This document shows, one piece after another, positions 9,988 to 48,217 of a stretch of DNA of 64,000 nucleotides. Source of the stretch: an uncultured Gammaproteobacteria bacterium (lineage in GTDB: Bacteria; Pseudomonadota; Gammaproteobacteria; Steroidobacterales; Rariloculaceae); NCBI GenBank assembly GCA_964457725.1, contig CAYWGQ010000002.1:45023-109022 (forward strand), written 5' to 3'. Under the pieces are notes generated by a model that did no database searches, was not told the origin of the DNA, and saw nothing but the letters and a program-made list of their open reading frames with translations. Within the stretch, counting starts at the first letter, position 1; each line of letters starts with the position of its first letter. The position numbers were made by a program, and so were the translations under genes.

Positions 9988-10059
9988 GGCACCGAAGGTG
10001 CAATGTCCGTGCCACGGCAGCGTGCCGCGACGCCGTCGGCCGCTCGTTAGGAAAGGCGC

Positions 10060-11619
10060 TTACTCGCTCGGCATTCGTGCAGGGGGATCGGCTGCCGCGT
10101 GGATACGCGCCGAAGCGGCGGAAAGCTCGCCTTCGACGCCGCGCCGCGTACGCATGCCGCGCCAGGCGAAGATCGCGCCGAGCGCGGCGAGCGTCGGCAG
10201 CAGCGGGTGCGCGACCGCGAGCGCGAGCGGATCGTCGAACAGGATCACGGTGTGGCGGAGCGAGCGCTCGAACATCGGCCCGAGGATGAAGCCGATTAGG
10301 AACACGATGAACGGGAACTCGAGCTTGCGCATGAAGTAGCCGAGGACGCCGAAGACGAGCGTGACGCCGACGCCGAACATCGAGCCCGCCGACACGTACG
10401 CGCCCGTCACGCAGAGGAGCGCTGTAGATGCGACGATCGCGTGCCGCGGGATCGCGAGAAACAGCGCGAAGAACCGCAAGCCGACGTTGCCGACGACGAG
10501 ATTCGCGAAGTTCGCGAGCATCAGCGACGCGAACAAACCGTAGACCACTTCCGGGTTTTCTTCGAACACGAACGGCCCGGGCGTGATTCCGTGGATCAGG
10601 AATGCGCCGACCAGGAGCGCGGCCGTCGCACTGCCGGGAATCCCGAGGGTGAGGAGCGGTATCAGGCTCGCGCCGATGACGGCGTTGTTCGCCGACTCGA
10701 CCGCCGCGACGCCCTCGAGCTTGCCCGTGCCGAACGCCTCCGGCGTCTTCGACGCGCGCCGCTCCGCGCCGTACGCGAGGAATGCGGCGACCGAGGCGCC
10801 GAGCCCCGGCAGCGCGCCGACCGCGGTCCCGATCACTGAGCCGCGCAGGATCGCCCGCGCGCAGCCCTTGAGCTCCGCGAGGCTCAGCCGATCCTTCGCG
10901 CCGCCGGAGAGGCCGAGCGGACGCGCCGTCTGCGGCGGCGGCCCGCGGAAGTACTCCTCGAGCTGCACGAGCACCTCGCCGAGCGCGAGCACGCCGATCG
11001 CGATCGCGACGAGCGGCAGCCCGTCCTGCAGCTCGAGCAATCCGAACGTGAGGCGCTCGCCGCCGGTCTCGAGATCGAGCCCGATCGTCGCGAGCAGCAT
11101 GCCGAACGCGAGCGCGAAAACGCCCTTCAGCACCGACCGGCCGAGCAGGCTCGCGATGAACGCGAACGAAAAGACCAGCACGCCGAGGATCTCCGGCGGC
11201 CCCATTCGCAGCGCGAGGACCGTCAGCGGCGCCGCGGAAACGATCAGCACGAGGTCAGCGAACACATCGCCCGCGACGGACGAGTAAAGCGACACCGACA
11301 GCGCCTTCCGCGGCTCGCCGCGCTTTGCGATCGGATGACCGTCGAGCGCCGTCAGCGCAGAGGACACTTCGCCGGGGGTGTTGATCAGGATCGAGGTGAT
11401 CGCGCCGCCGTACTCGCCGCCCTTGTGCACGCCGATCAAGAAGGCGATCGCCGACAGCGGGCTCATCGTATAGGTGAGGGGCACCCCGATCGCGATCGCC
11501 ATCGGCGCGCTCATGCCCGGAATCGCGCCGACCAGGATCCCGAGCGATACGCCGAGCACGATGAGGGCGACGTTGGTCGGTTCGAGCGCGGCGCCGATGC
11601 CGGCGAGGATCACTTCCAT
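10060..11619 (-). CDS. tctA: tripartite tricarboxylate transporter, large permease
   Basis: 519 aa polytopic membrane protein. The GAIPGMSAPMAIAIGVPLTY and GGEYGGAITSILINTPGE blocks are typical of TctA. Confidence 0.9.
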   Translation of the reverse strand: MEVILAGIGAALEPTNVALIVLGVSLGILVGAIPGMSAPMAIAIGVPLTYTMSPLSAIAFLIGVHKGGEYGGAITSILINTPGEVSSALTALDGHPIAKRGEPRKALSVSLYSSVAGDVFADLVLIVSAAPLTVLALRMGPPEILGVLVFSFAFIASLLGRSVLKGVFALAFGMLLATIGLDLETGGERLTFGLLELQDGLPLVAIAIGVLALGEVLVQLEEYFRGPPPQTARPLGLSGGAKDRLSLAELKGCARAILRGSVIGTAVGALPGLGASVAAFLAYGAERRASKTPEAFGTGKLEGVAAVESANNAVIGASLIPLLTLGIPGSATAALLVGAFLIHGITPGPFVFEENPEVVYGLFASLMLANFANLVVGNVGLRFFALFLAIPRHAIVASTALLCVTGAYVSAGSMFGVGVTLVFGVLGYFMRKLEFPFIVFLIGFILGPMFERSLRHTVILFDDPLALAVAHPLLPTLAALGAIFAWRGMRTRRGVEGELSAASARIHAAADPPARMPSE

Positions 11620-11634
11620 CGGACGGCGCCGTCG

Positions 11635-12078
11635 TTACGGCAGCGGGAAGCCGAGCACGCCGTCGAACAACAGCCACAGCGCGAGCGGGAACAGCACGGC
11701 CATGCCCGCCGTCGCCTTCCAGCTCGCACCGCCGATCGCGGTGAAGCCGCCGACGAGGACGGCGGCGCCGGCGAGATAGCCGAGGAGCTGCATCAGGACG
11801 AGCGCTCCGGCGAGCACCGCGCAGGCGGCGCCCACGAACAGCCAGCTCGGCCGGTCGAGCGGCGCCGGCTCGTCCGTCTCGGGAGCGCGGACCAGCCGCG
11901 CGACGAGGAGCAGCAGGGCGGCGGCGGTTGCGAGCACCGCGGCGACGTACGGCATGAACGCGGGGGGCAGGTCGCCGAACCCGACGTCCTGCGTCACCTG
12001 GCGCGGGATGATCACGAAGATCGTCAGAAGGCCCAGCAGGCCGAGCACGCCCGCGCTGATCAGGTCCGTCCGCCGCAT
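11635..12078 (-). CDS. tctB: tripartite tricarboxylate transporter, small membrane subunit
   Basis: 147 aa with four hydrophobic segments, positioned between tctC and tctA. Confidence 0.7.
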   Translation of the reverse strand: MRRTDLISAGVLGLLGLLTIFVIIPRQVTQDVGFGDLPPAFMPYVAAVLATAAALLLLVARLVRAPETDEPAPLDRPSWLFVGAACAVLAGALVLMQLLGYLAGAAVLVGGFTAIGGASWKATAGMAVLFPLALWLLFDGVLGFPLP

Positions 12079-13082: not shown

Positions 13083-14030
13083 TCACGCAGCCGGCCGCGC
13101 CGGCCCGAGCATCTCGCCCGCGAGCGCGCGCGACGGCACGCCGTCGACGCCGACCGGCACGTCGCCGACCAGCGTCACGCGATAGAGCTGCCGATCGAAA
13201 TCGGTCTCGAACACGTCCTCGGGCGCGAGATGCGCGGTTGCGCGGTTGTCCCACATCGCGATGTCTCCCGCGTTCCAGCGGAAGCGGCAGACGAAGTCCG
13301 GCCGCACGACGTGCTCCCACAGGAGCTCGAGAAGCTGCTGGCTCTCGCGAGCGGTCAGCCCGACGATGGAGCGCAGGAACGCAGGGCTCACGTACAACGC
13401 GCGCTCGCCGGTCTCGGGATGCACGCGCACGAGCGGATGCTCGCTCGAGAAGCTCGTGCGGTTCGTCTGCGCGAGCGCGTTCCCGGTGACCTTGCCGTAG
13501 CCGTGAATGCCGCGCAGCCCGTCGACGAACCGGCGCATCGTCGGCGAGAGGGCATCGTAGGCCGCGACGAGGTTCGTGAACTGCGTGTCGCCTCCGTAAG
13601 GCGGGACGGTGACCGCACGGAGGATCGATACGGCGGGCGGATTGACGATCGTCGTCAGATCGGTATGCCAGCCGGTCCACGGCCGGATCGGGTCCGGCTC
13701 GGCGTGACTATGGCGCTCGCGTCGCTTCGCGACGGAGTACACCTCCGGGAAGCCTTCCTCGTGGCCGTAGAGGACGTGGCCGATCGTCGGCTCGCCGAGC
13801 GCGCGTGCGAAGGCGACGTGCTGCGCGTGGTCGAGGTGCTGATCGCGGAAGAACACGACTTTCCATTTGAGGAGTGCCGCGCGCACCGCGGCCACGGTCT
13901 CCCGCGACGGCGGTTGCTTGAGATCGACGCCGAAGATCTCGGCGCCGGTGAAAACCGTCATCGGCCGGACCTCGATCGTGCCCGGTGTCGTCCGCTCGTC
14001 GAGCGGCGATGCTGAAGCCATGACTCGCAT
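13083..14030 (-). CDS. TauD/TfdA-family Fe(II)/2-oxoglutarate dioxygenase
   Basis: 315 aa. Contains GAEIFGVDL, VVFFRDQHL, the WHTDLT (HxD) facial-triad motif and MWDNRATAH. Confidence 0.85.
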   Translation of the reverse strand: MRVMASASPLDERTTPGTIEVRPMTVFTGAEIFGVDLKQPPSRETVAAVRAALLKWKVVFFRDQHLDHAQHVAFARALGEPTIGHVLYGHEEGFPEVYSVAKRRERHSHAEPDPIRPWTGWHTDLTTIVNPPAVSILRAVTVPPYGGDTQFTNLVAAYDALSPTMRRFVDGLRGIHGYGKVTGNALAQTNRTSFSSEHPLVRVHPETGERALYVSPAFLRSIVGLTARESQQLLELLWEHVVRPDFVCRFRWNAGDIAMWDNRATAHLAPEDVFETDFDRQLYRVTLVGDVPVGVDGVPSRALAGEMLGPARPAA

Positions 14031-14184: not shown

Positions 14185-15036
14185 ATGTCCATGTCGCGGC
14201 AGCAAGAATCCGTGGTCATCCGACCCCTGAATCCCGTCATCGGTGCGGAGCTGCACGGCTTCGACCTCAGAGAGGAGCTCACCGACGAGGACGTCGAGAC
14301 GATTCGCGCCGCGCTGAACCGCTACGGAGTCGTCTTTTTCCGCGATCAGGACATCACGCCCGAGCAGCAGCTTCGCTTCGGTCGGCGGTTCGGCGAGCTG
14401 CACGTGCATCCTTCCGTCCGCGGCAAGCCGCGTGAGGAGTGGACCGAGCTTCTCGCCGTGCACGCGGACGAGCGCACGGTGCGCGTCGTCGGCGACAAGT
14501 GGCACACCGACGTGTCCTGCGACGAGAAGCCGCCGTACGCGAGCATCCTGCACCTGCACACCGTCCCGGAAACCGGCGGCGACACGCTCTTCTCGAGCAT
14601 GTACGCGGCGTACGAGGCGCTGTCCGAGCCAATGAAGCGCTTCCTCGAACCGCTGACCGCGACGCACGACGGGGCACCGAACTACGCGGACCGCGCGCGG
14701 CGCGATCCCGAGTCGGGCAGACATCGGGTCGATCCGGTGGCGGTGCACCCCGTGATCGCGACGCACCCGTTCACGCGCCGAAAGACCATCTATGTGAACT
14801 CGATCTTCACGGTGCGGATCAACGAGCTCGAGCCGGCGGAGAGCGACGCGCTGCTCGCGTTCCTGTTCGCGCACGTCGCGCGTCCGGAATTCCAGTGCCG
14901 GTTCCGCTGGCGGCGAAACTCGATCGCCTTCTGGGACAACCGGGCCGTGCAGCATTACGCCGTCTGGGACTACTACCCGGCTGTCCGCTCCGGGCACCGC
15001 GTGACGATTCGCGGCGACCGTCCGGCCAGGGCGTGA
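14185..15036 (+). CDS. TauD/TfdA-family Fe(II)/2-oxoglutarate dioxygenase
   Basis: ATG at 14185 gives a 283 aa product. Contains GAELHGFDL, VVFFRDQDI, WHTDVSCDEKPP, GGDTLF and FWDNRAVQH. It is divergent from its paralog at 13083..14030. Confidence 0.85.
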   Translation: MSMSRQQESVVIRPLNPVIGAELHGFDLREELTDEDVETIRAALNRYGVVFFRDQDITPEQQLRFGRRFGELHVHPSVRGKPREEWTELLAVHADERTVRVVGDKWHTDVSCDEKPPYASILHLHTVPETGGDTLFSSMYAAYEALSEPMKRFLEPLTATHDGAPNYADRARRDPESGRHRVDPVAVHPVIATHPFTRRKTIYVNSIFTVRINELEPAESDALLAFLFAHVARPEFQCRFRWRRNSIAFWDNRAVQHYAVWDYYPAVRSGHRVTIRGDRPARA

Positions 15037-16337
15037 CCGACTGCGAAGTCGTCGTCATCGGCGCGGGCGCCGCGGGCCTGGCGGCAGCGGCCGAGCTCGA
15101 TCGTCGCGGCCGCAGCGTCTGCGTGCTCGAGGCGCGCTCGCGCATCGGCGGACGGATACTGACCGAACGCGCGCCTGGATTCCCGGCACCGCTCGAGCTC
15201 GGCGCGGAGTTCGTTCACGGCCGCCCGGCCGCGACCGTCGGCCGGCTCGAAGCGCATGGCGGCGCGATCGTCGACGCGGGCGGCGAGCACTGGATGCTGC
15301 ACCGCGGCCGGCTGCAGCGCGCGGAAGGCGTGTTCGCCGAGTTGAAGCGCGCGCTGCGCCGCGCGCGGGTGCCGCGCGGCGACTTGCCGTTCGCCGAGTT
15401 CCTCCGAGCGCACGGGCGCGGACTTTCCCGAGAAGCGCGGCAGCTCGCACGCCTGCTCGTCGAGGGGTTCGACGCGGCCGACGCGACGCGTGCGAGCACG
15501 CAAGCGATATTGCGCGAGTGGCGCGGGCAGGGGGCGGCCGATGCGCCGACGTATCGCCCGCTCGGCGGCTACGCCGTGCTGCTCGATGCGCTCCGCGCGG
15601 CGCTCGGCGGCGCGCGCGTCGAGCTCGAGTCGGTCGTCGAGGCGGTGCGCTGGTCGCGAGGCCGCGTCGTCGTCACGGCTACGCGCCGCGGGGAGGCGTT
15701 CGAGATCGTCGCGTCCGCTGCGGTGATCGCGTTGCCGCTCGGCGTGCTCCAGGCGGGCGTCGTGCGGTTCGATCCGGAGCTCGCGGCGAAGCGCAGCGCG
15801 CTCGAAGGCCTCGCCGCCGGTCCGGTCATCAAGGTGCTGCTGCGCTTCGGCAGCGCCTTCTGGGAGACGATCGATCGCGGCCGCTACCGGAATGCCGCGT
15901 TCTTTCAGTCCGCCGCGGCGCCGATCCCGACGTTCTGGACGGCGTTGCCGCTACGCGTGCCGCTCCTGACCGGATGGGCCGCGGGGCCGAAGGCGGCCGC
16001 GCTCGCCGGCGCGGGCGAGCGCGCGATCGTCCGCGCGGCCGTTGCGAGCCTCGAAGCGCTATTCGGCGTGCGGCGGCGTTGGGGCGCGCGGCTCGTAGCC
16101 GCGTACGTGCACGACTGGCAAGAGGACGAGCTCGCGCGCGGCGGCTACAGCTACGTCGTGAGCGGCCGCGCGGACGACGCGCGGGCCGCGCTCGCGGCGC
16201 CGCTCGAGCGGACGCTCTACTTCGCCGGCGAGGCGGCCGACACGGCCGGGGAGTCCGGAACGGTCGCCGGCGCGCTGCAGAGCGGGCTCCGCGCGGGCGG
16301 CGAGGCGGCCCGGGCCCTCGCTCGACGAGCGCGCTAG
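15033..16337 (+). CDS. flavin-containing amine oxidase family protein
   Basis: A GTG at 15033 overlaps the preceding stop (GTGA). Contains VVVIGAGAAGLAAAAEL...VLEARSRIGGR (FAD fold) and a C-terminal YFAGEA..GTVAGALQSG. Confidence 0.8.
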   Translation: MTDCEVVVIGAGAAGLAAAAELDRRGRSVCVLEARSRIGGRILTERAPGFPAPLELGAEFVHGRPAATVGRLEAHGGAIVDAGGEHWMLHRGRLQRAEGVFAELKRALRRARVPRGDLPFAEFLRAHGRGLSREARQLARLLVEGFDAADATRASTQAILREWRGQGAADAPTYRPLGGYAVLLDALRAALGGARVELESVVEAVRWSRGRVVVTATRRGEAFEIVASAAVIALPLGVLQAGVVRFDPELAAKRSALEGLAAGPVIKVLLRFGSAFWETIDRGRYRNAAFFQSAAAPIPTFWTALPLRVPLLTGWAAGPKAAALAGAGERAIVRAAVASLEALFGVRRRWGARLVAAYVHDWQEDELARGGYSYVVSGRADDARAALAAPLERTLYFAGEAADTAGESGTVAGALQSGLRAGGEAARALARRAR

Positions 16338-16350
16338 AATTGGCGACGAC

Positions 16351-17382
16351 GTGCTGCCGAATCGATCGATGCGCTTCCTTTTGCCGTTGACGCTGCTCTT
16401 GGGTGTTGCGCCGCTCGCGTCCGCGCATCATTCCCGCGCGGAGTACACCGAGGGCGCGCGCGAGATCGAGGGCACGCTCGTGCGGATCCTGTGGCGCAAT
16501 CCGCACCCGGGCTTCACGATCGAGACGGTCGAGGCCGGTCGGACGGTGACGTGGGAAGTCGAGGGATGGAGCTCGCTCTACACGTTCGATCGTGCCGGCA
16601 TCACGCGCGAGCGCTTTCGGGAGGGCGACACGGTGCGGGTCGTCGGCCTGCCGTCCGGGCGTCGTCCCGGCCGCCTGCTCGGCACGCACATCCTGCTCGC
16701 CGACGGCACCGAGGCCGTGATGAAGCGTGACGCCGAGCCGTACTGGGCGGACGGGCGGCACATCGGCGGCAGGCGAAACTGGGAGGCGGAGACGCGCGCG
16801 GCGGTCGTCGACGCGGCGGCCGAGAACCGGGGGATCTTCCGAGTCTGGAGCTACCCGTCGCCGGTCTACGAGACGCGCGAGCACGTGCGGCTGACCGCGG
16901 CGGCCGAGGCGGCGCGCGCGGCCTTCGACGAGGTCGACAATCCGATCATGGCCTGCGAACAGAAGAGCATGCCGGGCAGCATGCTGACCCCGAATCCGTA
17001 CGAGTTCGTCGACGGCGGCTCGACCATCACGATCCGCGGCTACGAGGGCGACGTGGTGCGGACGGTGTATCTAGAACAACCTTTAAATATTGATCAGATA
17101 CCATTGACCAAGCAGGGATTATCGGTCGGTCGTTGGGAGGATGCGCGGACGCTCGTGATCCACACGTCGCGAATCGACGCGCCGCACCTCGGCTTCAGCG
17201 GCGTCCCGCTCTCGGCGGCCGCGACGGTCGTCGAGCGCTATCGGCTGAGCGAGGATCAGACGCGGCTCGATTTCACGATCGTCGTGACCGATCCGGCGAC
17301 GTTCATCGAGCCCGCGACCTTCGAGTTCCATTGGCTCGCGCTCGGGGAGCGCTTCGGCCGCTACGACTGCACCGTCCACTGA
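16351..17382 (+). CDS. fusion protein: N-terminal AHHS (DUF6152-like) domain plus C-terminal partner-family domain
   Basis: Signal peptide ...PLASA then HHS, with NPH 25 aa later, as in 28884, 39840 and 47804. The C-terminal 220 aa aligns with 40248, 46557 and 48307 (GLSVGRWEDARTLVIHT, VVERY, VTDPATFIEPATF, terminal YDC). An alternative start is ATG 16369. Confidence 0.75.
   Translation: MLPNRSMRFLLPLTLLLGVAPLASAHHSRAEYTEGAREIEGTLVRILWRNPHPGFTIETVEAGRTVTWEVEGWSSLYTFDRAGITRERFREGDTVRVVGLPSGRRPGRLLGTHILLADGTEAVMKRDAEPYWADGRHIGGRRNWEAETRAAVVDAAAENRGIFRVWSYPSPVYETREHVRLTAAAEAARAAFDEVDNPIMACEQKSMPGSMLTPNPYEFVDGGSTITIRGYEGDVVRTVYLEQPLNIDQIPLTKQGLSVGRWEDARTLVIHTSRIDAPHLGFSGVPLSAAATVVERYRLSEDQTRLDFTIVVTDPATFIEPATFEFHWLALGERFGRYDCTVH
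17068..17124 (+). other. in-frame AT-rich patch (19 codons, 35% GC) inside CDS 16351..17382
   Basis: Counted by hand: 20 G/C of 57 nt, and only 6 of 19 codons end in G/C. The codons include TTA x2, ATA, CTA, AAT, ATT, CAA and GAA. Flanking codons almost all end in G/C. Confidence 0.9.
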
Positions 17383-17424
17383 GCGCGGCTCTTCCGCGGA
17401 CGCGCTCGCCGTGGCGGGTAACGC

Positions 17425-18036: not shown

Positions 18037-18125
18037 CGCAAGGCGGTGATAGTCGAACCGTACGCGAGGGTACCGGGAAGCCGAGCGGCGCGCCCTGACG
18101 CCGATCACACCGGCCCCGGCGCGGC

Positions 18126-25776: not shown

Positions 25777-27390
25777 ATGAGGCTCCGCCTCGCGGGCATC
25801 GCGGTTCTCGCGGCCGTGGCGGCGGCACCGCTCGCCGCGGCCGAGCGCTCCCTCGTGAGCGCGGCCGAGGACGGCGATCGCCCGGCCGCCATCGCGCTCT
25901 TGCGGGAGGGGGCGGATCCGGACGTCCGCGGGCCGGACGGCTCGACCGCGTTGATGTGGGCCGCCTATCACGGCGACCTCGAGCTCGTGCAGCAGCTGCT
26001 CGCCGCCGGCGCGGACCCGAACGCGAAGAACGAGTTCGGCGCGTTCGCACTGTCGGAGGCGGCGATCATCGGCTCGACCCCGATCATCGCGGCGCTGCTC
26101 GAGGCGGGCGCCGATCCGAACGCGACGAATCCCGAGGGCGAGACGGCTCTGATGGCGGTCGCGCGAACGGGCAACGTCGAGGGCGCGAAGCTGCTGCTCG
26201 ACGCGGGCGCGGCAATCGACGCGCGCGAGCGCTGGGGCGGGCAGACGGCGTTGATGTGGGCCGCCGCGCAAGGCCACCCCGAGATGATCCGCTTCCTGAT
26301 CGATCGCGGCGCGGATCCCGACGCAAGGGGGGCCGTCCGCCAGTGGGAGCGGAAGGTCATCAAGGAGCCGCGGCCGAAGGACATGAACCAGGGCGGCTTC
26401 ACGCCGCTCTTGTACGCTGCTCGCGAGGGGTGCATCGAGTGTGCGCGCGCGCTGGTGGAAGGCGGCGCCGACATCGACAAGCCCGATCCGCACCGCGTGA
26501 CGCCGCTGAACATGGCGCTGCTGAATCTGCATTTCGACCTCGCGGTGTACCTGATCGAGGCGGGTGCGGACATCAACAAGTGGGATCTCTACGGCCGGAC
26601 CCCGCTGTACCTCGCGGCCGACACGAGCACGCTGCCGGTCATGGGCAATGGCGCGATGGTCGTGCTGCCGAGCATGGATCGGCACACGGCGCTCGACGTC
26701 GGCCGGCTGCTACTCGAGCGCGGAGCGGACCCGAACATCCAGCTGAAGCGCCGCCCGCCGTATCGCAACGTGCCGCAGGACCGCGGCGGGGACTCTATCC
26801 TGTCGCAAGGCGCGACACCGCTTCTGCGAGCCGCGCGCGCGGGCGACGCGCCGTTCGTGAAGCTGCTGCTCGAGCACGGCGCGCTCGTCGACCTGCCGAG
26901 CAATCAGGGCGTGACACCGCTGATGGCGGCCGCCGGCGTCGAGTTCGGGCTGCGCGTGACGCGCGGCCGCAACCGGACGGACGAGGGCGTGCTCGCGACG
27001 ATGCGGCTCCTGATCGACGCGGGCGCGGATGTCAACGCCCGCATGGTGACCGAGCCGAAGGGAGAATCCGCGGCGCACCTGCTCGTGATCGAGCAGCGCC
27101 TGAGCGACTTCAGCTACGACTACCGCGGTCGGCAGGTGCCGAGCCCGCGTGCGGTGCCGCACAGGACGGCGCTGCACGGCGCGGCGATGAAAGGCTTCAC
27201 GCCGTTCGTCGAGTTTCTCGTCGCGAACGGCGCAGATTTGTACGCGCGTGACGCGCACGGCATGACGCCGCTCGACCTCGCGATGGGCCGCTATGAGGAA
27301 GCCTTTTTGCGCCAGGCCGCCGAGCCGCACGTGGAGACCGTCGCGCTGCTCGAGAAGCTGATGGCCGAGAACCCGCCGCGCAAGGAATAG
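25777..27390 (+). CDS. secreted ankyrin-repeat protein
   Basis: 537 aa with a signal peptide. At least 10 repeats of the type G.TALMWAA..G..E.V..LL.AGADPNA. The start lies 4 nt after the DUF1552 stop. Confidence 0.85.
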   Translation: MRLRLAGIAVLAAVAAAPLAAAERSLVSAAEDGDRPAAIALLREGADPDVRGPDGSTALMWAAYHGDLELVQQLLAAGADPNAKNEFGAFALSEAAIIGSTPIIAALLEAGADPNATNPEGETALMAVARTGNVEGAKLLLDAGAAIDARERWGGQTALMWAAAQGHPEMIRFLIDRGADPDARGAVRQWERKVIKEPRPKDMNQGGFTPLLYAAREGCIECARALVEGGADIDKPDPHRVTPLNMALLNLHFDLAVYLIEAGADINKWDLYGRTPLYLAADTSTLPVMGNGAMVVLPSMDRHTALDVGRLLLERGADPNIQLKRRPPYRNVPQDRGGDSILSQGATPLLRAARAGDAPFVKLLLEHGALVDLPSNQGVTPLMAAAGVEFGLRVTRGRNRTDEGVLATMRLLIDAGADVNARMVTEPKGESAAHLLVIEQRLSDFSYDYRGRQVPSPRAVPHRTALHGAAMKGFTPFVEFLVANGADLYARDAHGMTPLDLAMGRYEEAFLRQAAEPHVETVALLEKLMAENPPRKE

Positions 27391-27500
27391 ACCGACAAGC
27401 ACGGCGCGCGCCGCGCACCCGGCGCGTGCCGCTCAAGGATGTCCGGGCGAACGAACAGCCGCCCGGATGCCGGTGATCCAGTCCTAGAAGGGGGAAATGG

Positions 27501-28820
27501 ATGAGTGCAATCCGCTCGACGTTCGGGGCGGCGATGTCTTCGCTTGCCTTGTTGGCCATCGGCTCGACCGCCGCGCACGCGCAGCTCGAGCCGCCGCACG
27601 TGCCGGGGCTGCGCGGCGCGCCGTTCTCGGCGCAGAACCCGCCGGCGGACGTTCCGAGCTACGGGAGCGGACCGGAGTGGGACGGCCGGCCCCCGCCCGG
27701 CATCGAGCCGCTGCCGGTCGACGTGTTCACGACGAAGGATTTCTACAAGGACCGGGATCACTGGCTCGACCAGCGGTACTGGCGCTGCAATAGCCCCCGA
27801 CAGATGGCGGACATGCGCAGCGGTGGAGCGGGCACCGGCACGACGGACCCGCGAATCGGCCGCAACCCGCCGACCTCGGCCAGGTGGGGCGACTGCAACG
27901 CGGACTGGCCGCGGGAGAACATCGTGAGCCCGTACCCGTTCGCGACCGCAAAGGAGCACTACGAGGCGCTGCTCGCCGATGCGCGCTCGAAGGGAGGTCC
28001 CACCGTGCACACGTACGAGACGATGCCGAAGTGGGACGGCGTCTACGGCGAGTACGTCCCGGACGGGCGCAGGATTTGGAACTACGGCCGCGCGAACCAG
28101 GTGCCGACCTTCCTTTCGCTGCTGACGCCCGAGTATCAGCAGCGGATGGTGCGGCAGCTCTATCACGAGGGCGTGAACGCGGCGCACCAGTGGTCGGCGT
28201 CTTACTGCTGGCCCGAAGGCTTCATGCGCCAGTGGGCGACGGGGCCGAAGCCGACGCGCATCGTCGTGACGCCGCAGGTGGTGCTGCTGCTCGGCAGCAG
28301 CAGCGGCAACATCATGCGCACCGTGCACCTCGGCCGCGAGTTTCCGCTCGGTCAGGACGTGCCGCAGTGGTACGGCGACACGATCGGCTTCTGGGACGGC
28401 GACGCGCTGATCACCTGGACGACGAACATCCAGGGGTGGACGCAGCACACGACCTGGGAGTTCAGCTACGAGCTCGAAGCGATCGAGATCCTGACGCCGG
28501 TGCATGACGCTTCCGGGAAGCTCCTCGGCCTCGACTGGGAGACGATCCTCTACGACAGCGAGGCGCTCGCGCAGCCGGTACGGATTCTCTGGCACCGTAA
28601 CTATCAGCAGGGCTGGGATACGGCGGGTCGGCTCGGTTTCGCCGAGTGCACGCGCGCGCTCTATCCGATCAACGGCTTCGCGACGCCGGTCGCGCCCGGG
28701 CAGGTGATAGAGTTCCGGGTGCCCGACATGTTCGATCGGCCGTGGGCAAAGATCTGGGAGGAGCACTTCGAGCAGGAGATGGAGCGGCCCGCGGAGGAGC
28801 TCGATCTCGGCTTCAATTGA
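27501..28820 (+). CDS. secreted hypothetical protein, long divergent member of the partner family
   Basis: 439 aa with signal peptide ...TAAHA/QL and RBS AAGGGGGAAA. The core [19 protein letters not shown] aligns with G.S.G.W.GD.L.V.T in 40248, 46557 and 48307. Conserved Cys residues are present. Confidence 0.7.
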
Positions 28821-28883: not shown

Positions 28884-29384
28884 ATGGTCAGTAAGAGTCG
28901 ATTTGCCGTCGCGGCTGCGATCGGCTTGACGTCGTTAGCGCTGCTCGCCGGCACGGCGGGCGCGCATCACTCGTACTCGATGTACGACGGCAGCATCTAC
29001 AAGGTCTTCACGGGCGTGATCGTCCGCATCGTGCCGAACGCGGCGCATTTCGAGATCCACTTCGTGCCGCTGAACGAAGAGCGCAACGCGCTCGTCCGCG
29101 ACGAGAACGGCGACCCGCTCGTCTGGGTCGTGCAGATGGAGAGCGCGGCGGAAGCGTTCCGGCACGGCATCACCCGCGAGAGCTTCCCGCAGGGCACGAT
29201 CATGAGCATGGGCGTGCATCCTCGGCGGGACGGGAAGCCGGCCGGCGATCGCGGCGAGTCGGGATTGTTCCAGTGCCCGAAGAGCACGCCGCCCGCGCCG
29301 GGCAAGCACTGCGACTCGGTCGAGGGCAGCATTGCGTTCGGCCCGGGCGTGATCCCGCCGGAAGGACCGGTCGCCAGCCACTGA
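28884..29384 (+). CDS. AHHS small periplasmic protein (DUF6152-like)
   Basis: 166 aa. The signal peptide ends GTAGA and is followed by HHSYSMYD. It aligns with 39840 and 47804, but the NPH position reads NAAH. Confidence 0.7.
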   Translation: MVSKSRFAVAAAIGLTSLALLAGTAGAHHSYSMYDGSIYKVFTGVIVRIVPNAAHFEIHFVPLNEERNALVRDENGDPLVWVVQMESAAEAFRHGITRESFPQGTIMSMGVHPRRDGKPAGDRGESGLFQCPKSTPPAPGKHCDSVEGSIAFGPGVIPPEGPVASH

Positions 29385-39718: not shown

Positions 39719-39839
39719 GCGAGCGCGATCGTAACGTATCGAGGGGCGTAACCGTCCCGTGCCCAGCACTGCAGCGGGACGCGGGACCATAGTAGAATCG
39801 GTTCGTCCGCAGGCCGGCAGCCCAAGGGGGGAGCAGCAC

Positions 39840-40238
39840 ATGGGCAGACGCACTCAGGTCGCCGCAGCACTGGTTCTCGCGCTCGCAGGCGCATCCGCCG
39901 CCGCGCATCACTCGTTCACGGCCACTTACTTCGAGGACCGGACGATCGAGATCGAGGGGAAGCTGCTCCAGTTCATGTTCCGCAATCCGCACTCGTTCGT
40001 GCACGTCGAGGCGCCGGACGAGAACGGGCAGCCACAGCGCTGGGCCGTCGAGTGGGGCGGGGCCGGGCAGCTGTCGAGCCAGGGGGTCACGAACCAGACG
40101 CTGCGCCCCGGCGACATCGTGACGATCACCGGCAATCCGGGCCGCGATCCGAAAGATCATCGGATCCGCATGCTCTATCTGAAGCGCAATTCCGACGGCT
40201 TCGACTGGGGCCGGCGCCCCGGCGAGACCTTCAACTAG
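39840..40238 (+). CDS. AHHS small periplasmic protein (DUF6152-like)
   Basis: ATG at 39840 follows AAGGGGGGAG. The 132 aa product has a signal peptide ending SAAA, then HHSFTATYF, RNPHSFVHVE, WAVEWGG and GDIVTITG. Confidence 0.75.
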   Translation: MGRRTQVAAALVLALAGASAAAHHSFTATYFEDRTIEIEGKLLQFMFRNPHSFVHVEAPDENGQPQRWAVEWGGAGQLSSQGVTNQTLRPGDIVTITGNPGRDPKDHRIRMLYLKRNSDGFDWGRRPGETFN

Positions 40239-40247
40239 CGCTTCGCC

Positions 40248-41096
40248 GTGCGTGCGCTCCTTCTCGCCGCGTCGCTAGCGCTCGCGGCCGCGCCTGCAAC
40301 CGGGCAATTGAGCCTCGTCGGGGAGTGGGCGGGCCGCTACCACGAGGATCAGGCGGACCGCATCCCGGGCGACGTCCAGGGCGATTTCACCGGGGTGCCG
40401 CTGAACGACGCGGCGCGGCGCTACGCCGAGGCGTTCGACGTGACCCGCGTCGCCGTGCTCGAGCACCAGTGCCAGCCGTACAACGTCGCGCACATCTACC
40501 GGGGGCCGCTGCAGTTCCGGATCTGGGAAGAGAAGGATCCGGCGACGCAGGAGATCGTCGCCTACCGCCAGTATCTCGGCACTTACCAGCAGTGGCGCAC
40601 GATCTGGATGGACGGCCGCCCGCATCCGCCGGACTACGTCCCGCACACGTTCATGGGCTTCTCCACCGGCCGCTGGGACGGCGACATCCTCACCGTGCAC
40701 ACCACGCACATCAAGAAGGAGTTCTACCGGCGCAGCGGCATCCCGAGCAGCGACCAGACGACGATGGTCGAGCACTACATTCGCCACGGCGACCTGCTGT
40801 CGCACGTGATGATCATCACGGACCCGGTATATCTGACGGAGCCGTACGTGAACAGCCAGGAGTTCGTGCTGATGGAGCGCGGCAACCAGAACTGGCTCTA
40901 CAACTGCGAGTACGTGATGGAAGTGCCGATGCCGAAGCACGACGTGCCGCACTACCTGCCCGGTCAGAATCCGTTCATCGAGGATTTCGCGCAGAAGTTC
41001 GGGCTGCCGTTCGAGGCGGTGTTCGGCGGTGCGGAGACGCTCTATCCGGAGTATCAGCCGCGGCTCGAGGCGCTGATGAACGGCGGCGGACGATGA
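40248..41096 (+). CDS. secreted hypothetical protein, partner family
   Basis: A GTG start lies 9 nt after the 39840 gene stop. The 282 aa product has a signal peptide and contains VPLNDAARRYAEAFD, DGRPHPP, GFSTGRWDGDILTVHTT, MVEHY, ITDPVYLTEPY and the Cys pair HQC/YNC. Confidence 0.75.
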   Translation: MRALLLAASLALAAAPATGQLSLVGEWAGRYHEDQADRIPGDVQGDFTGVPLNDAARRYAEAFDVTRVAVLEHQCQPYNVAHIYRGPLQFRIWEEKDPATQEIVAYRQYLGTYQQWRTIWMDGRPHPPDYVPHTFMGFSTGRWDGDILTVHTTHIKKEFYRRSGIPSSDQTTMVEHYIRHGDLLSHVMIITDPVYLTEPYVNSQEFVLMERGNQNWLYNCEYVMEVPMPKHDVPHYLPGQNPFIEDFAQKFGLPFEAVFGGAETLYPEYQPRLEALMNGGGR

Positions 41097-42016
41097 CGCG
41101 CGCGACTCGGGTATCCGCCGCGGTCGCCGCGCTGCTCGCCGCGGTCGCGCTCGATGCGAACGCGCAGCGCGGCGGGATCGACACCTACCACGTGCAAGGC
41201 AACGTCTACATGCTGATCGGGGCGGACGCGAACGTCGCCGTCCAGATCGGCGAGGAAGGCATCCTCGTCGTCGACACGGGCGGCGCGGCGACGCGCGACG
41301 CCGTTCTCGCAGCGATCCGCACCCTGTCGGACAAGCCGATTCGCTGGATCGTGAACACCCACGCGGACGTCGACCACACCGGCGGCAACGAGACCATTTC
41401 CCAGGCGGGCATGACCGTCAACGGCAACCCTGCCGCGATCATCGCGCACGAGCGCGTGCTCACGCGGATGTCCGAGGAAGACCGGCCGATCACCGAGTGG
41501 CCGCTAAACACGTTCTTCGAGTCGCAGCGCGACTTCAGCTTCAACGGCGAGGCGATCTTCCTGTATCACGTGCCGGACGCGCACACGGACGGCGACGTGA
41601 TCGTGTACTTCCGCGGCTCCGACGTGCTCGTCGCGGGCGATCTCTTCGTCACGACCACGTATCCGGTGATCGATCGCGACTCGGGCGGCGGCGTGCAGGG
41701 TTTCATCGACGGGCTGAACCTGATGCTCGACATCGCGGTGCCGCGCTATCTCCAGGAAGGCGGGACGTACGTGATCCCCGGGCACGGGAGGCTCGGCGAC
41801 GAGGCGGACATCGTCGAGTATCGGGACATGGTCGTGATCATCCGCGATCGCGTCCGGGACATGATCGATCGCGGGATGACGCTCGAGCAGGTGCTCGCGG
41901 CGCGTCCGTCGCTCGACTACGACACGCGCTACGGCAGCGGTCGCGGCGAGTGGACGACGCGGATGTTCGTCGAGGCCGTGTACCGCGATCTGGCGGCGAA
42001 AGGAGGCAGTGAGTGA
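41093..42016 (+). CDS. MBL-fold metallo-hydrolase (secreted)
   Basis: ATG at 41093 overlaps the preceding stop. Has a signal peptide. Contains NTHADVDHTGGN at the HxHxDH position, HTDGDVIVYF and IPGHG. It is a paralog of 21025..21951. Confidence 0.8.
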   Translation: MTRATRVSAAVAALLAAVALDANAQRGGIDTYHVQGNVYMLIGADANVAVQIGEEGILVVDTGGAATRDAVLAAIRTLSDKPIRWIVNTHADVDHTGGNETISQAGMTVNGNPAAIIAHERVLTRMSEEDRPITEWPLNTFFESQRDFSFNGEAIFLYHVPDAHTDGDVIVYFRGSDVLVAGDLFVTTTYPVIDRDSGGGVQGFIDGLNLMLDIAVPRYLQEGGTYVIPGHGRLGDEADIVEYRDMVVIIRDRVRDMIDRGMTLEQVLAARPSLDYDTRYGSGRGEWTTRMFVEAVYRDLAAKGGSE

Positions 42017-42870
42017 GCGTCCGGAAGATCGCGGCCAGCGGCCGCCTCGCGGCCGGGATCGGCGCGGCGGTGCTCGCCTCGGCCGCGTTCGCGCAGAACG
42101 AGAGTGCGCAAGAGGCCGCGCGGATCGACCTGACGGGCTACTGGGTTTCCGTCGTCAGCGAGGACTGGCGCCACCGGATGGCGACGCCGCGCCGCGGCGA
42201 TTACGAGAGCGTGCCGCTGAACGACGAAGGCCGTCGCGTCGCCGATCAATGGGATCTCGAGCGCGACAACGCGGCGGGCCTCGAGTGCAAGGCGTTCGGC
42301 GTCGGCGGCTTGATGCGGCAGCCCGGCCGGTTGCGCATCGAGTGGGACGACCCGAATACGCTCCGGATCGATTTCGACGCCGGCACGCAGACGCGGCTGC
42401 TGCACTTCGATCCCGGCGTCGCGCCGCCCGCGGAGAAGACGTGGCAAGGGCATTCCGTCGCCGAATGGGTCGGGCCCCCGCGGCCGCGCGGCCAAGCGCC
42501 GGTCCGCGCGCAGATCGGCAACAGCGCCGGGCCGATCGCGCCGGGCGGCGGCGGGCGAGGGCAGCGCGGCGGGCCGCCGCCGCCGGCCTCGGTCAACGAG
42601 GGCGGCGCGCTGAAGGTCGTTACGACCGGCTTCCGCGAAGGCTACCTGCGGAAGAACGGCGTGCCGTACAGCGAATCCGCCGTGATCACGGAGTATTTCC
42701 ATCGGCTGCCGCAGCATCCGAACGGCGACACGTGGCTGCACGTCGTCACGATCGTCGAGGACCCGCTATACCTGAACGAGCCCTTTTACACGAGCACGCA
42801 TTTCAAGCTCGAGCCGAGCGGCGCACGGTGGAATCCGACTCCGTGCCGTACCGCGCCGCCGCCGCCGTAA
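42013..42870 (+). CDS. secreted hypothetical protein, divergent partner-family member with Gly/Pro-rich insert
   Basis: A GTG at 42013 (RBS AGGAGG) overlaps the MBL stop. Contains LTGYWVSVVSEDW, VPLNDEGRRVADQWD, LKVVTTGF, ITEYF and VEDPLYLNEPFY. It carries an insert, PGGGGRGQRGGPPPP. Confidence 0.7.
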   Translation: MSVRKIAASGRLAAGIGAAVLASAAFAQNESAQEAARIDLTGYWVSVVSEDWRHRMATPRRGDYESVPLNDEGRRVADQWDLERDNAAGLECKAFGVGGLMRQPGRLRIEWDDPNTLRIDFDAGTQTRLLHFDPGVAPPAEKTWQGHSVAEWVGPPRPRGQAPVRAQIGNSAGPIAPGGGGRGQRGGPPPPASVNEGGALKVVTTGFREGYLRKNGVPYSESAVITEYFHRLPQHPNGDTWLHVVTIVEDPLYLNEPFYTSTHFKLEPSGARWNPTPCRTAPPPP

Positions 42871-42921: not shown

Positions 42922-45342
42922 TCAGCGGGGTGCGAACGGGGCGCGAACCGCTTCGCGAAGCCGCTCGAGGCGCACCGGCGATCCGGTGAACAGGGTTTCG
43001 GGCAGCGCCGGCGGGCGCGGCGCGAGCGCCGCGAAGATCTCGGCGGCCTCATAGCGGTTCAGCCCTTCGCCGGCGAGGTACTGGAGGCGCAAGTTGCGGT
43101 CCTGGTTCAGTGCCGCACCCCGGAGCACGGGCCCGAGCTCGGACGGGCCGGCCGCGTACGTCCCGAGCAGCGCGGTCGCCGATTCGAAGCCGACCTCCCG
43201 GAGCGACCGGGCGACCTCGGCGTAGCGCACGCTCTGCAGCAGCCGCTCGAGCCGGTCGACGTCGAGCGCTTCGCCGCCGGCCCGGCCGAGCAGCACGGCG
43301 TCGTAGCCCGCGCCGTGCACGCGATTCGCGAACAGCGCGCCGTCCGGAAAGACCTCGAAGAACGTCGCGAGCTCGCTCCGCACGGCTTCCTCGGTCGTCT
43401 CGTAGAGCTGCACGAACACGGTCACCGCGCCGCCCGGCCGGAGCCGCGAGCGCACCAGCCGCCAGAACTCGACCGTGTAGAGCGCGGCCGCCCCCTTCAC
43501 CCACGGATCGAGCGGATCGGAGGTGATCACGTCGAACGTCTCGCGCGACGTCTCGAGCAGGTGGCGGCCGTCGTCGATCACGATCCGCACTTTCGGATTC
43601 GCCGTCACGTCGAAGCTCTCGGCCGCGAAGTGCGGCGCGACGCCCCGTACCACGAGCGGCTCGAGCTCCGCGACGACGACCTGCTCGACCGCTGGATCGA
43701 TCGCGACGGCGCCCGCCGTGACGCCCGCGCCGAGCCCGATCACGAGGGCCGAGCGCGGCTCCTCGGCCGCGAGTGTCGCGAGGTGACCGAGCATCCGTTG
43801 CAGCCGCATGTCCTGCGGGTAGCTCGACGCCTGCGCCTTCCCGGCGCTGTGGAAGCTGCGCCGGCCGTCGGCGTCTTCCGTCACTGCGACGGAGGCGCTT
43901 CTGCCTTCGCCTGCGAACAGCACGCGTACGCCCTCGGCGCGCGTCGGCAGGAAGCGCCCGTAGGCGATCAGCTCGCCGGGAACGGCCGGCACGGCCGCCG
44001 CGAACGCGGCCGCTACGGCAACGGCGCCGGCGGCGAGCGCGACGCGCCGCCGCGGCGGCTCGGCTCGGTAGCCGGGCCGTGCGAGCAGCATGGCGCCAGC
44101 CGCGGCGGCGGCTGCGATCATCAGCTGCTGCGTGAGCTGGCTGCCGGCGAGCGCGACGAGCACGAATCCGGCGGCGAGCGCACCCGCGATCGCGCCGAGC
44201 GTGTTCGCGGCGTACACGTGCCCGGTCAGCCGCGCCGGATCGCCGCCCGGTGCGGCTGCCGCGGCGATCGCGAGCGGCACGCTCGCGCCCCAAGCCACCG
44301 CGGCGGGCAGCACGGCGAACGCGATCCGCATCAGATCGATCGGCAGCGCCGCGGCCGCGACCGCCGGTAGCGTCGGATCGATCGGCCAGTAGGGCAGGAG
44401 GCGCGCGATCGCGAATGCGGCCCACGCGATCGCCGCGCACGCGAGCAGCTGACAGACGCCGAGCGCTGCACCCGGGTCGAACCGCCGGCCGCACGCGGCG
44501 CCGAGCGCGGCGCCCGCGCCGAGGCCCGCGAGGACGACGGCGAGGATCAGCGCGAACGTGTAGACCGTGCCGCCGAGGAGCAGCGACAGTTGCCGCGTCC
44601 AGACGACCTCGGCCGCGAGCGCGGTCATGCCCGAGAGCGCGATCGCGACGTAGAGCGTCCCGCGCTGCGCCGTATGGCGCTCGGCCCGAGCGACGGCAGC
44701 CGCGGCTCGCGTCGGCGCAGTCGCCTGCCGCCGGCTCGATCGGCCGAGCGCGAACGCGGCCACGGCCGCTCCGCCGTTGAGCGCGGCAGCGGCGAGCGTC
44801 GCGACGGTCGTGTCGTAGACGCGCAGCAGATGGAAGCCCGCGACGATGCAGCCGAGCACGCCGCCGACGAGGTTCGCGGCGTAGAGCGCGCCGAGACCGG
44901 CCGCGCCGCGCGGCGTCGTGTCGAGCACTCGGCCGAGCGCGGGCAGCGTCGCGCCCATCAGCACGGTAGGCGGCAGCAGGCACAGTGCGGCGAGGACGGC
45001 GCGCGCGGCGAGGCCGCCGTTACCGCCCCAAGCCGCATAGGCGCTCGCGAGCGCCGGCAGCCCGAGCAGCACCGCCAGGCCTGCGAGACCGGTCGCGATC
45101 TCGAGCGTCGCGTAGACGCGGAGCGGATCGAGCCGCGCGGGCAAGACGCGCCAGCACGCGAGGCTCCCGATGCAGAGGCCCCCCATGAACGTCGCGAGCA
45201 GCACCCCGAGCGACGGCGCGGACGCGCCGATCACGAGCGCGAGGAGCTGGAACCAGACGAGCTGATAGACGAGCGCCGCCGCGCCGCTCGCGAGCGCGAG
45301 CGCCGCAAGCGCCGGCGCGGATGGAGGCTGGGCGTTCGTCAT
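42922..45342 (-). CDS. fused polytopic-membrane / spermidine synthase-like protein
   Basis: ATG at 45342 (alternative start 45360). About 480 aa of hydrophobic repeats are followed by LVIGLGAGVTAG...FDVITSDPLDPW...GGAVTVFVQ (aminopropyltransferase fold). The track ORF extension to 46413 is rejected. Confidence 0.8.
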   Translation of the reverse strand: MTNAQPPSAPALAALALASGAAALVYQLVWFQLLALVIGASAPSLGVLLATFMGGLCIGSLACWRVLPARLDPLRVYATLEIATGLAGLAVLLGLPALASAYAAWGGNGGLAARAVLAALCLLPPTVLMGATLPALGRVLDTTPRGAAGLGALYAANLVGGVLGCIVAGFHLLRVYDTTVATLAAAALNGGAAVAAFALGRSSRRQATAPTRAAAAVARAERHTAQRGTLYVAIALSGMTALAAEVVWTRQLSLLLGGTVYTFALILAVVLAGLGAGAALGAACGRRFDPGAALGVCQLLACAAIAWAAFAIARLLPYWPIDPTLPAVAAAALPIDLMRIAFAVLPAAVAWGASVPLAIAAAAAPGGDPARLTGHVYAANTLGAIAGALAAGFVLVALAGSQLTQQLMIAAAAAAGAMLLARPGYRAEPPRRRVALAAGAVAVAAAFAAAVPAVPGELIAYGRFLPTRAEGVRVLFAGEGRSASVAVTEDADGRRSFHSAGKAQASSYPQDMRLQRMLGHLATLAAEEPRSALVIGLGAGVTAGAVAIDPAVEQVVVAELEPLVVRGVAPHFAAESFDVTANPKVRIVIDDGRHLLETSRETFDVITSDPLDPWVKGAAALYTVEFWRLVRSRLRPGGAVTVFVQLYETTEEAVRSELATFFEVFPDGALFANRVHGAGYDAVLLGRAGGEALDVDRLERLLQSVRYAEVARSLREVGFESATALLGTYAAGPSELGPVLRGAALNQDRNLRLQYLAGEGLNRYEAAEIFAALAPRPPALPETLFTGSPVRLERLREAVRAPFAPR

Positions 45343-45471
45343 GGAAGGTCGCGCGAGCATAGGCGAAAGGTTCGGGCCGGGGCTAGCAGGCGGACCGGGT
45401 CCCGCCGACGCGGGCAATGCGTGGCACCGAAGTTGCAACGACGTCGCCCCCGGGACGAAGCGGAGCGAGCG

Positions 45472-47803: not shown

Positions 47804-48217
47804 TCACTCCGCGCTCGGGGCTCCTGCGCCCTCCGAGCCCATGAACAGGCTCGATCCGTCCGGCAGCCGGATCTCCCGGCCGTTGGCCCGGAACGAGCGA
47901 TCACGGGCCTGGTAGCCCTCGACGGTCACTCGAATGCCGGCCGGCACCGAGTTGCGGTTCCAGCCGCGGCGAATCAGCGCGTTCGGCGCGCCGCCCTCGA
48001 CCGCCCACTGTTGCTTCTCGCCGCTCTCGGTCGTCACTTCGATGTGCAGCCAGGAGTGCGGGTTGCTGAACTCCATTCGCGTGACGACGCCCTCGAGCAC
48101 GATCGGCCGGTTGATGTCGAACTCGGCGGCGAACGAATGATGCGCGTCGACCGGAGCGGCTGCCCATCCTGCGGCGGCGGCCGCGACGGCGCTCAGGATT
48201 TTCACTCGCATGGACAC
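47804..48217 (-). CDS. AHHS small periplasmic protein (DUF6152-like)
   Basis: 137 aa. The signal peptide ends PVDA and is followed by HHSFAAEFD, SNPHSWLHIE, WAVEGG and GIRVTVEG. Confidence 0.75.
   Translation of the reverse strand: MSMRVKILSAVAAAAAGWAAAPVDAHHSFAAEFDINRPIVLEGVVTRMEFSNPHSWLHIEVTTESGEKQQWAVEGGAPNALIRRGWNRNSVPAGIRVTVEGYQARDRSFRANGREIRLPDGSSLFMGSEGAGAPSAE

Follow-up and report, generated by a model that had tools for sequence, protein, structure and literature searches.

In histidine-brace proteins such as LPMO, CopC, and YcnI, cleavage of the signal peptide exposes an N-terminal histidine, which is carried by an Ig-like/FnIII fold in LPMO and by a cupredoxin-like fold in CopC. 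Two periplasmic proteins of Escherichia coli offer further points of comparison: CusF, a small oligonucleotide/oligosaccharide-binding (OB)-fold protein with histidines near its mature N-terminus and a Met/Trp Cu(I) site, and ZinT (YodA), a metal binder with a calycin-like fold, in which a His-rich mature N-terminus (AFS/HGHHSH, the slash marking the cleavage site) and the barrel belong to one domain. Here, we describe a gene at 16351..17382 on the forward strand of a 64,000-nucleotide (nt) stretch of contig CAYWGQ010000002.1, from an uncultured gammaproteobacterium of the Rariloculaceae; this stretch is called the window throughout, and all coordinates refer to it. The gene joins a domain of the Pfam family DUF6152 (PF19649) to a second domain from a large, unnamed family, which we call the partner family.

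The fusion protein has an OB-fold N-terminal domain and histidines near its mature N-terminus, as CusF does, but the Met/Trp Cu(I) site of CusF has no counterpart in it. Its likeness to ZinT lies in the histidines at the mature N-terminus, although ZinT holds terminus and barrel in one domain and the fusion has two. The only feature in common with histidine-brace proteins is an invariant N-terminal histidine that would be exposed by signal-peptide cleavage; the candidate site of the fusion is a His-His dyad plus the histidine of an N-P-H motif, and its N-terminal domain is an OB-fold, not a fold of the histidine-brace class. Compared with typical DUF6152 members, which are single-domain proteins of ∼120-170 residues, the fusion adds a C-terminal domain of ∼190 residues. 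A literature search found no paper mentioning DUF6152, PF19649, or DUF6644, and the two papers found that name Rariloculaceae have no bearing on the module. The fusion itself is genuine and widely conserved. Taken as a whole, the account we favor, and consider likely, is of a secreted two-domain fusion whose module acts as a unit through an N-terminal histidine metal site and probably does not belong to a TauD/amine-oxidase pathway.

A conserved fusion of two secreted protein families

The open reading frame (ORF) begins with GTG, encodes 343 residues, and ends with a stop codon at 17380-17382. An in-frame ATG at 16369, giving a 337-residue protein that starts MRFLL, is an equally plausible start because most homologs begin with MR. 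The initial annotation read this gene as a Rosetta-stone fusion of the two components of one module, and every motif it quoted is present in the 343-residue translation. That reading is borne out: both halves have homologs among separate proteins, there is one signal peptide, the frame is unbroken, and more than 100 clusters of full-length homologs exist. The GC content at third codon positions stays between 0.76 and 0.96 in a single frame in every 150-nt block through the junction, and alignments to homologs are colinear, with zero indels at the junction. The gene is thus confirmed as a fusion of two secreted protein families.

The DUF6152 domain spans residues 26-125 (16426..16725). The Pfam model matches residues 17-102 with 45.8 bits (E 6.8e-12; profile positions 3-89 of 98), above its gathering score of 27 bits, and the hallmarks of the family are all present: a signal peptide followed by A/H-H-S, and W-x-N-P-H. 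H26, H27, S28, W48, N50, P51, and H52 are invariant. By this profile match and these hallmarks, the N-terminal domain is a bona fide DUF6152 member; the A/HHS mature N-terminus and the N-P-H motif are likewise found in the stand-alone DUF6152 proteins of the window and of sphingomonads.

The C-terminal partner domain covers residues ∼158-343 (16822..17379), with a homologous core at 188-340. When residues 126-343 were searched with BLASTP, they matched the stand-alone window proteins encoded at 40248 (33.6% identity over 107 residues, 53.5 bits) and 48307 (31% over 141 residues, 46 bits). A hidden Markov model (HMM) built from the C-terminal domains of 24 fusion homologs alone was then run on the 525 window ORFs of at least 60 residues, and it recovered 48307 (72.6 bits), 40248 (68.6), 46557 (40.0), and 42013 (27.5), the weakest match being ORF 27477..28817 (20.4 bits, E 8.6e-6). 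Comparison of the fusion C-domain alignment with the stand-alone partner alignment in hhalign gave a probability of 99.8% (E 4.4e-29, 151 columns), pairing fusion residues 188-340 with residues 59-221 of 40248 and bringing both invariant cysteines into register. The proposed alignment of the C-terminal half to 40248, 46557, and 48307 is therefore significant by HMM for all three, by BLASTP for 40248 and 48307, and by profile-profile comparison. Invariant positions common to the fusion and the stand-alone partners are C202, C340, R237, E295, and D314; the cysteines correspond to C75 and C220 of 40248, and the polar residues to its R117, E175, and D192. The Cys pair and the motifs G-x-S-x-G-x-W-E/D-G-D-T-L-V-x-T, E-R, and T-D-P are found in both kinds of protein. 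Judged by these alignments, the C-terminal domain is a fused derivative of the partner family.

Relative to a stand-alone partner, the fusion has exchanged the signal peptide and the first ∼20 mature residues for a linker, and it also lacks the C-terminal tail of 40248-type partners. The linker (residues ∼126-157, 16726..16821, with a helix at 140-151) is conserved in alignments, is ordered in both structural models described below (predicted local distance difference test, pLDDT, 83-97), and is specific to the fusion, nothing in the stand-alone partners matching it in hhalign. The domain boundaries first proposed consequently need adjustment: the N-terminal AHHS domain stands, while the remainder does not align with the partners throughout, since ∼126-157 is linker and the homologous core begins at ∼158/188 and ends at 340.

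The sole hydrophobic segment of the protein is the signal peptide (residues 1-25, 16351..16425), which ends in a cleavage-type site, A-S-A/H-H-S. Between residues 100 and 220 the highest 11-residue Kyte-Doolittle value is 1.25, so no internal hydrophobic segment is present, in agreement with the earlier proposal that the second domain has no signal peptide of its own. Stand-alone DUF6152 and partner proteins each have an N-terminal hydrophobic stretch and an A-x-A-type site. The missing partner signal peptide, expected for a fused domain, marks the C-terminal domain as a fused derivative rather than a stand-alone member.

Structure prediction is consistent with a single compact body. A full-length model from 24 sequences reached a pLDDT of 87 and a predicted template-modeling score (pTM) of 0.80; an AlphaFold model of the mature protein (signal peptide removed, 84 sequences) was compact, with a pLDDT of 92.8 and a pTM of 0.88. 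In a two-domain chain with an ordered linker, such a pTM indicates that the relative placement of the domains is confidently predicted. Foldseek searches of the PDB returned fold-level matches only. The N-terminal domain matched the OB-fold anticodon-binding domain of lysyl-tRNA synthetases over ∼95 columns at a root-mean-square deviation of 4.2 Å. For the C-terminal domain the best solved structure was CRABP-II (E ∼1e-4, template-modeling (TM) score ∼0.5 normalized to the target). Identity to calycin barrels (FABP/CRABP-II) is 10-12%, and the C-terminal domain is larger than they are, with additional helices and with a Cys pair of the disulfide type. At the sequence level, no relationship of this domain to calycins was detectable, and a profile search of solved structures yielded no relative (best E-value 0.19). 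The models thus predict an OB-fold and a calycin-like barrel, with likeness at the level of the fold only.

Fused and unfused forms of the module

A search of 5.8 billion proteins returned 220 homologs of the fusion at E <= 0.001. Among the 120 matches listed were more than 100 full-length clusters of ∼330-350 residues, with query coverage of 93-99% and identities of 42-80%; all full-length clusters carry PF19649, and several come from complete chromosomes. A genome scan limited to one genome per species gave 79 loci, nearly all from uncultured Gammaproteobacteria (Candidatus Rariloculaceae, Arenicellaceae, and others), and many genomes hold several loci. Across the fetched loci and the window, 166 ORFs contain both domains, 58 contain DUF6152 only, and 67 contain the partner only. 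The same fusion is accordingly found in other genomes, both as full-length clusters and as the fused ORFs of related loci. It was initially described as a fusion at one locus; instead, several gammaproteobacterial lineages have it as their dominant architecture, and it is highly paralogous there. Tandem arrays of fused genes reach eight copies in 15 kb at one locus (L048), and fused genes number at least 13, 12, and 11 in three complete chromosomes and at least 17 in one metagenome-assembled genome. Mature lengths are tightly clustered around a median of 318 residues. The window gene is an ordinary member of an architecture already present in public databases, where it is labeled only DUF6152.

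The DUF6152 domain comes first in all 166 fused ORFs; one apparent partner-first fusion was an artefact of the profile-search envelope, and that protein also has DUF6152 first. In a neighbor-joining tree, all 45 sampled fusions fall in a clade with 15 non-fused ORFs, of which several are truncated, and the stand-alone partners of the window fall outside it. This tree is only suggestive of a single origin, as it does not separate secondary fissions from tree error.

The same two families also occur side by side as separate genes. A stand-alone partner ORF lies within 150 nt on the same strand of 28 of the 58 DUF6152-only ORFs, with DUF6152 first in 12 and the partner first in 16. The window itself encodes three stand-alone DUF6152 proteins (39837, 47804, and 28884) and five partner-like proteins (40248, 42013, 46557, 48307, and 27501). 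Adjacent genes had been reported at three other loci of the window. Unfused adjacency does recur there, but the window contains three pairs together with two further partners. One partner, the fourth (42013), and one pair, the third (27501/28884), had been overlooked, and 46557 does not form a co-directional pair with 47804, the two genes being convergent.

The first pair opens a four-gene operon on the forward strand (39837..42870), in which stop and start codons overlap. A DUF6152 gene (39837..40238, Pfam E 1e-21) is followed after 9 nt by a partner gene (40248..41096), which by BLASTP, HMM, and hhalign is the closest window paralog of the fusion C-terminal domain and belongs to a very conserved family (3558 matches at E <= 0.001 among 8000 scored candidates). 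The third gene (41093..42016) encodes a secreted metallo-beta-lactamase-fold (MBL) protein matching Pfam Lactamase_B, with a degenerate metal motif, H-A-D-V-D-H in place of H-x-H-x-D-H. Its best NCBIfam match is TIGR04559 (SoxH-related, 'quinoprotein relay system zinc metallohydrolase 2') at 97.3 bits against a cut-off of 280, and TIGR04558 scores 57.6 bits against a cut-off of 300; on these scores it is a relative of the quinoprotein relay/SoxH-like MBL families and not a member of them. The last gene (42013..42870) encodes a second, divergent partner-like protein (HMM 27.5 bits; BLASTP to 40248, 75 bits). The order of DUF6152, partner, MBL, and partner-like genes is kept in two unrelated metagenome contigs (L084 and L087), together with a convergent spermine-synthase-like membrane gene, which lies at 42922..46413 on the reverse strand of the window; in both contigs the position of 42013 is taken by a gene of similar length with no Pfam match.

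Pair B lies on the reverse strand in partner-first order: the partner gene 48307..49188 (HMM 72.6 bits, also matched by BLASTP) is upstream of the DUF6152 gene 47804..48217 (Pfam E 4.6e-33). The partner gene 46557..47690 on the forward strand (HMM 40.0 bits; BLASTP to 48307, 86 bits) converges on 47804. In the third pair, also on the forward strand, a divergent partner-like protein of 439 residues (27501..28820, HMM 20.4 bits, E 8.6e-6 against the 525 window ORFs) precedes a DUF6152 protein of 166 residues (28884..29384, 38.8 bits against the Pfam cut-off of 27) with the mature N-terminus AGA/HHS. Directly upstream of this pair, 25777..27390 encodes an ankyrin-repeat protein with a signal-peptide-like N-terminus.

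Unfused modules are also found in cultured Alphaproteobacteria. On a plasmid of Novosphingobium humi, a partner-family gene (77.9 bits) ends in a 4-nt overlap of its stop codon with the start of a DUF6152 gene; in Croceibacterium atlanticum, two DUF6152 genes are followed by a partner gene (70.1 bits) and then by a TonB-dependent receptor gene; and Novosphingobium sp. KACC 22771 has a tightly packed partner-DUF6152-partner-DUF6152 array, which adjoins genes for two DUF6644 membrane proteins, two TonB-dependent receptors, and a cytochrome c. Among the Novosphingobium plasmids, L088 and L093 each have a pair of DUF6644 genes beside the module and L092 has just one; the window has no DUF6644 homolog. 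TonB-dependent receptors flank the module in L089 (a Croceibacterium plasmid) and in L093, which also encodes a cytochrome c.

The partner family is far larger than its fused branch. An exhaustive HMM search with a partner-only profile, taking one representative per 50%-identity cluster, found 16,811 representatives at E <= 1e-3, of which 9,335 reach E <= 1e-10. No Pfam or NCBIfam model matched any window partner, and no NCBIfam family matched any protein of the module above its cut-off. Among the best 150 partner matches, at least 16 proteins of 583-623 residues form a second fusion family, in which a full-length 40248-type partner is followed by an MBL domain (P0241, P0244, P0252, P0271, P0278, and 11 others). 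The MBL part aligns to the window MBL protein from residue ∼20-30 onward, without the signal peptide, and 15 of the 16 have no internal hydrophobic segment, P0350 having one marginal window inside the MBL domain. In two of these fusions the metal motif reads G-M-S-P-D-H or G-A-D-A-D-H, with the first histidine also lost. Proteins of ∼450-530 residues such as P0242, P0246, and P0260 give two separate partner-profile matches and no Pfam domain, and may be tandem partner-partner proteins.

Since the partner is fused to DUF6152 in one family and to an MBL domain in another, and all three are neighbors in the window operon, it appears to be physically linked to both. The suggestion that the two proteins act together, probably as a complex, is strengthened by the conserved fusion, its ordered linker and pTM of 0.88, and by unfused adjacency in the window, in metagenome contigs, and in cultured Alphaproteobacteria. 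Together these observations support the view that DUF6152 and the partner act as one physical and functional unit, and the fusion is very probably the genuine single-chain version of a two-protein periplasmic complex. What is new is that the fusion ties a Pfam domain to a very large protein family with neither a model nor a name, and that, through a conserved operon and another fusion family, a secreted MBL-fold protein joins the two. The family is very large, the partner alone accounting for about 17,000 clusters at the 50% identity level, and it shows strong expansion in uncultured Gammaproteobacteria of sea and soil. The value of the finding is as a lead to an envelope module, large and unnamed, that comprises DUF6152, the barrel partner, and in some cases an MBL protein, and that has a clear candidate active site.

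A candidate metal site at the mature N-terminus

The working site of this module would most likely be formed by the mature N-terminus (H26 and H27) and H52 of the N-P-H loop. Counting non-gapped sequences, H26 and H27 are each invariant in 159/159 fused and 56/56 stand-alone proteins, and H52 in 165/165 and 58/58; the barrel domain has no conserved histidine. Alanine is the commonest residue at position -1 before His-His across the family, and because H26-H27 directly follow this Ala, the mature protein would begin with them. In the predicted topology, 11 residues lead into a first strand of 11 residues, with W-x-N-P-H at its far end, so that the mature terminus may fold back beside H52. Unfused pairs occur in both orders, and the uniform DUF6152-first order of the fusions would fit a need for a free N-terminus, which a partner-first fusion would bury.

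We propose that the protein is secreted and probably periplasmic, with a Sec signal peptide cleaved at A-S-A/H-H-S to leave a free His-His amino terminus on the OB-fold DUF6152 domain, and that the ordered linker packs this domain rigidly against the calycin-like barrel. The fusion would be an old, conserved covalent form of the module that the window also encodes as adjacent gene pairs. Its N-terminal site may bind a metal ion, Cu(II) or Zn(II) being the chemically obvious candidates, and the barrel may offer a docking surface for a ligand or a protein. Secreted metallo-enzymes or envelope uptake systems are what the module probably serves; it might, for instance, deliver or modulate a metal or small ligand. 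It probably stands outside any TauD/amine-oxidase pathway. Signal-peptide cleavage, metal binding, and cellular role are steps that we infer. We give a metal site at His-His/H52 about an even chance. Any one specific role is rather unlikely when taken singly, whether as a ligand carrier, as a catalyst, or as a metallochaperone or regulator that serves secreted metallo-enzymes. It is possible, though doubtful, that the fusion belongs to an undescribed class of periplasmic metalloproteins, in which a metal center made by the His-His terminus and the N-P-H histidine is set against a barrel and works as a chaperone or regulator or as a histidine-brace-like catalyst.

Several observations weigh against this proposal. 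The first ten residues of the mature model are its lowest-confidence block (mean pLDDT 68), as would be expected if a bound metal or ligand is absent from the model. The suggested proximity of H26/H27 to H52, like the putative C202-C340 disulfide, comes from model topology only. In hhalign comparisons, E. coli CusF was not significantly similar to the fusion (probability 1.5%, P 0.034) and E. coli ZinT gave probabilities of 0.1% for the C-terminal domain and 0.2% for the N-terminal domain, leaving kinship with either unsupported. The constant domain order could stem from a single ancestral fusion, or a few, and not from selection. Finally, fusion genes have heterogeneous neighborhoods, with no recurrence of metal-homeostasis genes in the contexts examined. 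If the N-terminal site does bind a metal, it would represent a new fold for N-terminal-His metal centers in the bacterial envelope. The invariant His-His, the constant DUF6152-first order, and the presence of more than ten paralogs in some genomes make for hypotheses that are testable in cultured Novosphingobium or Croceibacterium.

Alternative roles and gene neighborhoods

The commonest tight same-strand neighbor of fusion genes is a stand-alone partner-like protein (26 ORFs in 22 loci). Other recurrent tight neighbors encode YncE/lactonase-type propellers, Abhydrolase_10, FAA hydrolase, sulfatase, Amidohydro_3, arylsulfotransferase, alkaline phosphatase, and MBL proteins; these enzymes are varied in kind and mostly have signal-peptide-like N-termini. 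Catabolic neighbors of such diversity, together with the large paralog expansion in tandem arrays, would suit a metal-free carrier that binds a small hydrophobic or organic ligand in its barrel for envelope uptake, like an extracytoplasmic solute receptor, with the paralogs serving different substrates. The FABP/CRABP-like fold of the C-terminal domain, a G-x-W motif at the start of the stand-alone partners, and the TonB-dependent receptors that adjoin the module in Croceibacterium and Novosphingobium point the same way. Such a carrier, however, leaves the invariant His-His N-terminus, the histidine of N-P-H, and the partner-MBL fusions unexplained, and the likeness of the barrel is one of fold only (TM score ∼0.5). 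We regard this role as unlikely, though it deserves consideration.

Also rather improbable, in our estimate, is an enzyme, for instance one with an oxidative mono-copper center of the histidine-brace type on a new fold and the barrel as its substrate pocket. By analogy with LPMO, CopC, and YcnI-type sites, the mature protein would begin with a histidine after removal of its signal peptide, and the barrel has the invariant polar residues R237, E295, and D314. Periplasmic oxidoreductases recur nearby, among them pyrroloquinoline quinone (PQQ)/GSDH dehydrogenases, cupins, and cytochrome c, but with no background rate this recurrence does not amount to enrichment. The OB-fold, moreover, is unlike that of any known histidine-brace protein, and the literature search found no supporting paper and none joining 'histidine brace' with an OB-fold. 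PQQ-/GSDH-type periplasmic dehydrogenases repeatedly adjoin DUF6152 or partner genes (in the window, L081, L082, L084, and L090), again a recurrence and not an enrichment. The window example, a PQQ-dependent dehydrogenase at 49343..51115 on the forward strand, is divergent from pair B and scores below the cut-offs for the methanol/ethanol family and for 'acido-empty-quinoprotein group A'.

There is a slim chance that the module regulates or inhibits secreted metallo-hydrolases as one of their subunits. TIMPs are OB-fold proteins whose free N-terminus ligates the metal of the target enzyme, and the fusion likewise would combine an OB-fold with an invariant free N-terminus; MBL, Amidohydro_3, alkaline phosphatase, and peptidase M19 genes recur as tight neighbors, and the MBL domains of the partner-MBL fusions have a degenerate metal motif. 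This comparison is purely an analogy with TIMPs, however, and many fusion genes have no hydrolase neighbor.

Just as small is the chance that the fusion belongs with the genes directly upstream in an operon for sulfonate or amine catabolism, as the initial annotation implied. A TauD-family dioxygenase (14185..15036, Pfam TauD E 3e-70) and a flavin amine oxidase (15033..16337, Pfam Amino_oxidase E 3e-48) are encoded on the same forward strand; the start of the second and the stop of the first overlap over 4 nt, and 13-31 nt lie between the second and the fusion gene. The 13-nt spacing first reported is exact for the GTG start, with the amine-oxidase stop TAG at 16335-16337 and GTG at 16351. No terminator-like site lies between the genes. 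A scan of 12800-18600 was uninformative: it gave zero promoter-like sites and a single terminator-like site, which lies on the opposite strand, and these counts do not exceed the shuffled expectation. From spacing alone, then, the proposed co-transcription of the three genes is plausible, but their linkage is not conserved in related loci. With tblastn (E <= 1e-10), the TauD, amine oxidase, coiled-coil, and GTPase proteins of the window had no match in the 79 genome loci, and no relative of TauD or the amine oxidase was found within 10 kb of the fusion there. The arrangement is also absent from five metagenome contexts of homologs with 65-75% identity, none of which contains a relative of either protein; one of the five has an amine oxidase nearby, which is unrelated and on the opposite strand. 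In addition, both enzymes lack a signal peptide, whereas the fusion protein is predicted to be secreted. With no conserved linkage in the 79 loci or the five contexts, a functional link to TauD or the amine oxidase is unsupported. A second TauD-family paralog (13083..14030, reverse strand) is divergent to the first, and both fall below the cut-off of the taurine dioxygenase equivalog.

That the gene is an artefact, with a frameshift, a lost stop codon, or an assembly chimera merging two adjacent genes, is almost certainly wrong: such cases do exist for this module in public data (P0206 and P0208), but colinearity with more than 100 independent full-length clusters, the absence of junction indels and of an internal signal peptide, a conserved and ordered linker, and third-position GC content that keeps to one frame through the junction effectively refute it. 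Neither of those two proteins counts as an independent fusion. P0206 (408 residues) has a frameshift after '...GQGVT' inside its DUF6152 part and retains the partner signal peptide, and P0208 is an over-extended call of a 40248-type pair, with its upstream extension in the wrong frame. The window ORF 40052..42016 is a spurious wrong-frame extension of the same kind as P0208.

Elsewhere in the window, AT skew is unusually high relative to the rest at 10001..12000 (0.247) and 44001..46000 (0.196), and the latter stretch falls inside the long spermine-synthase-like membrane gene.

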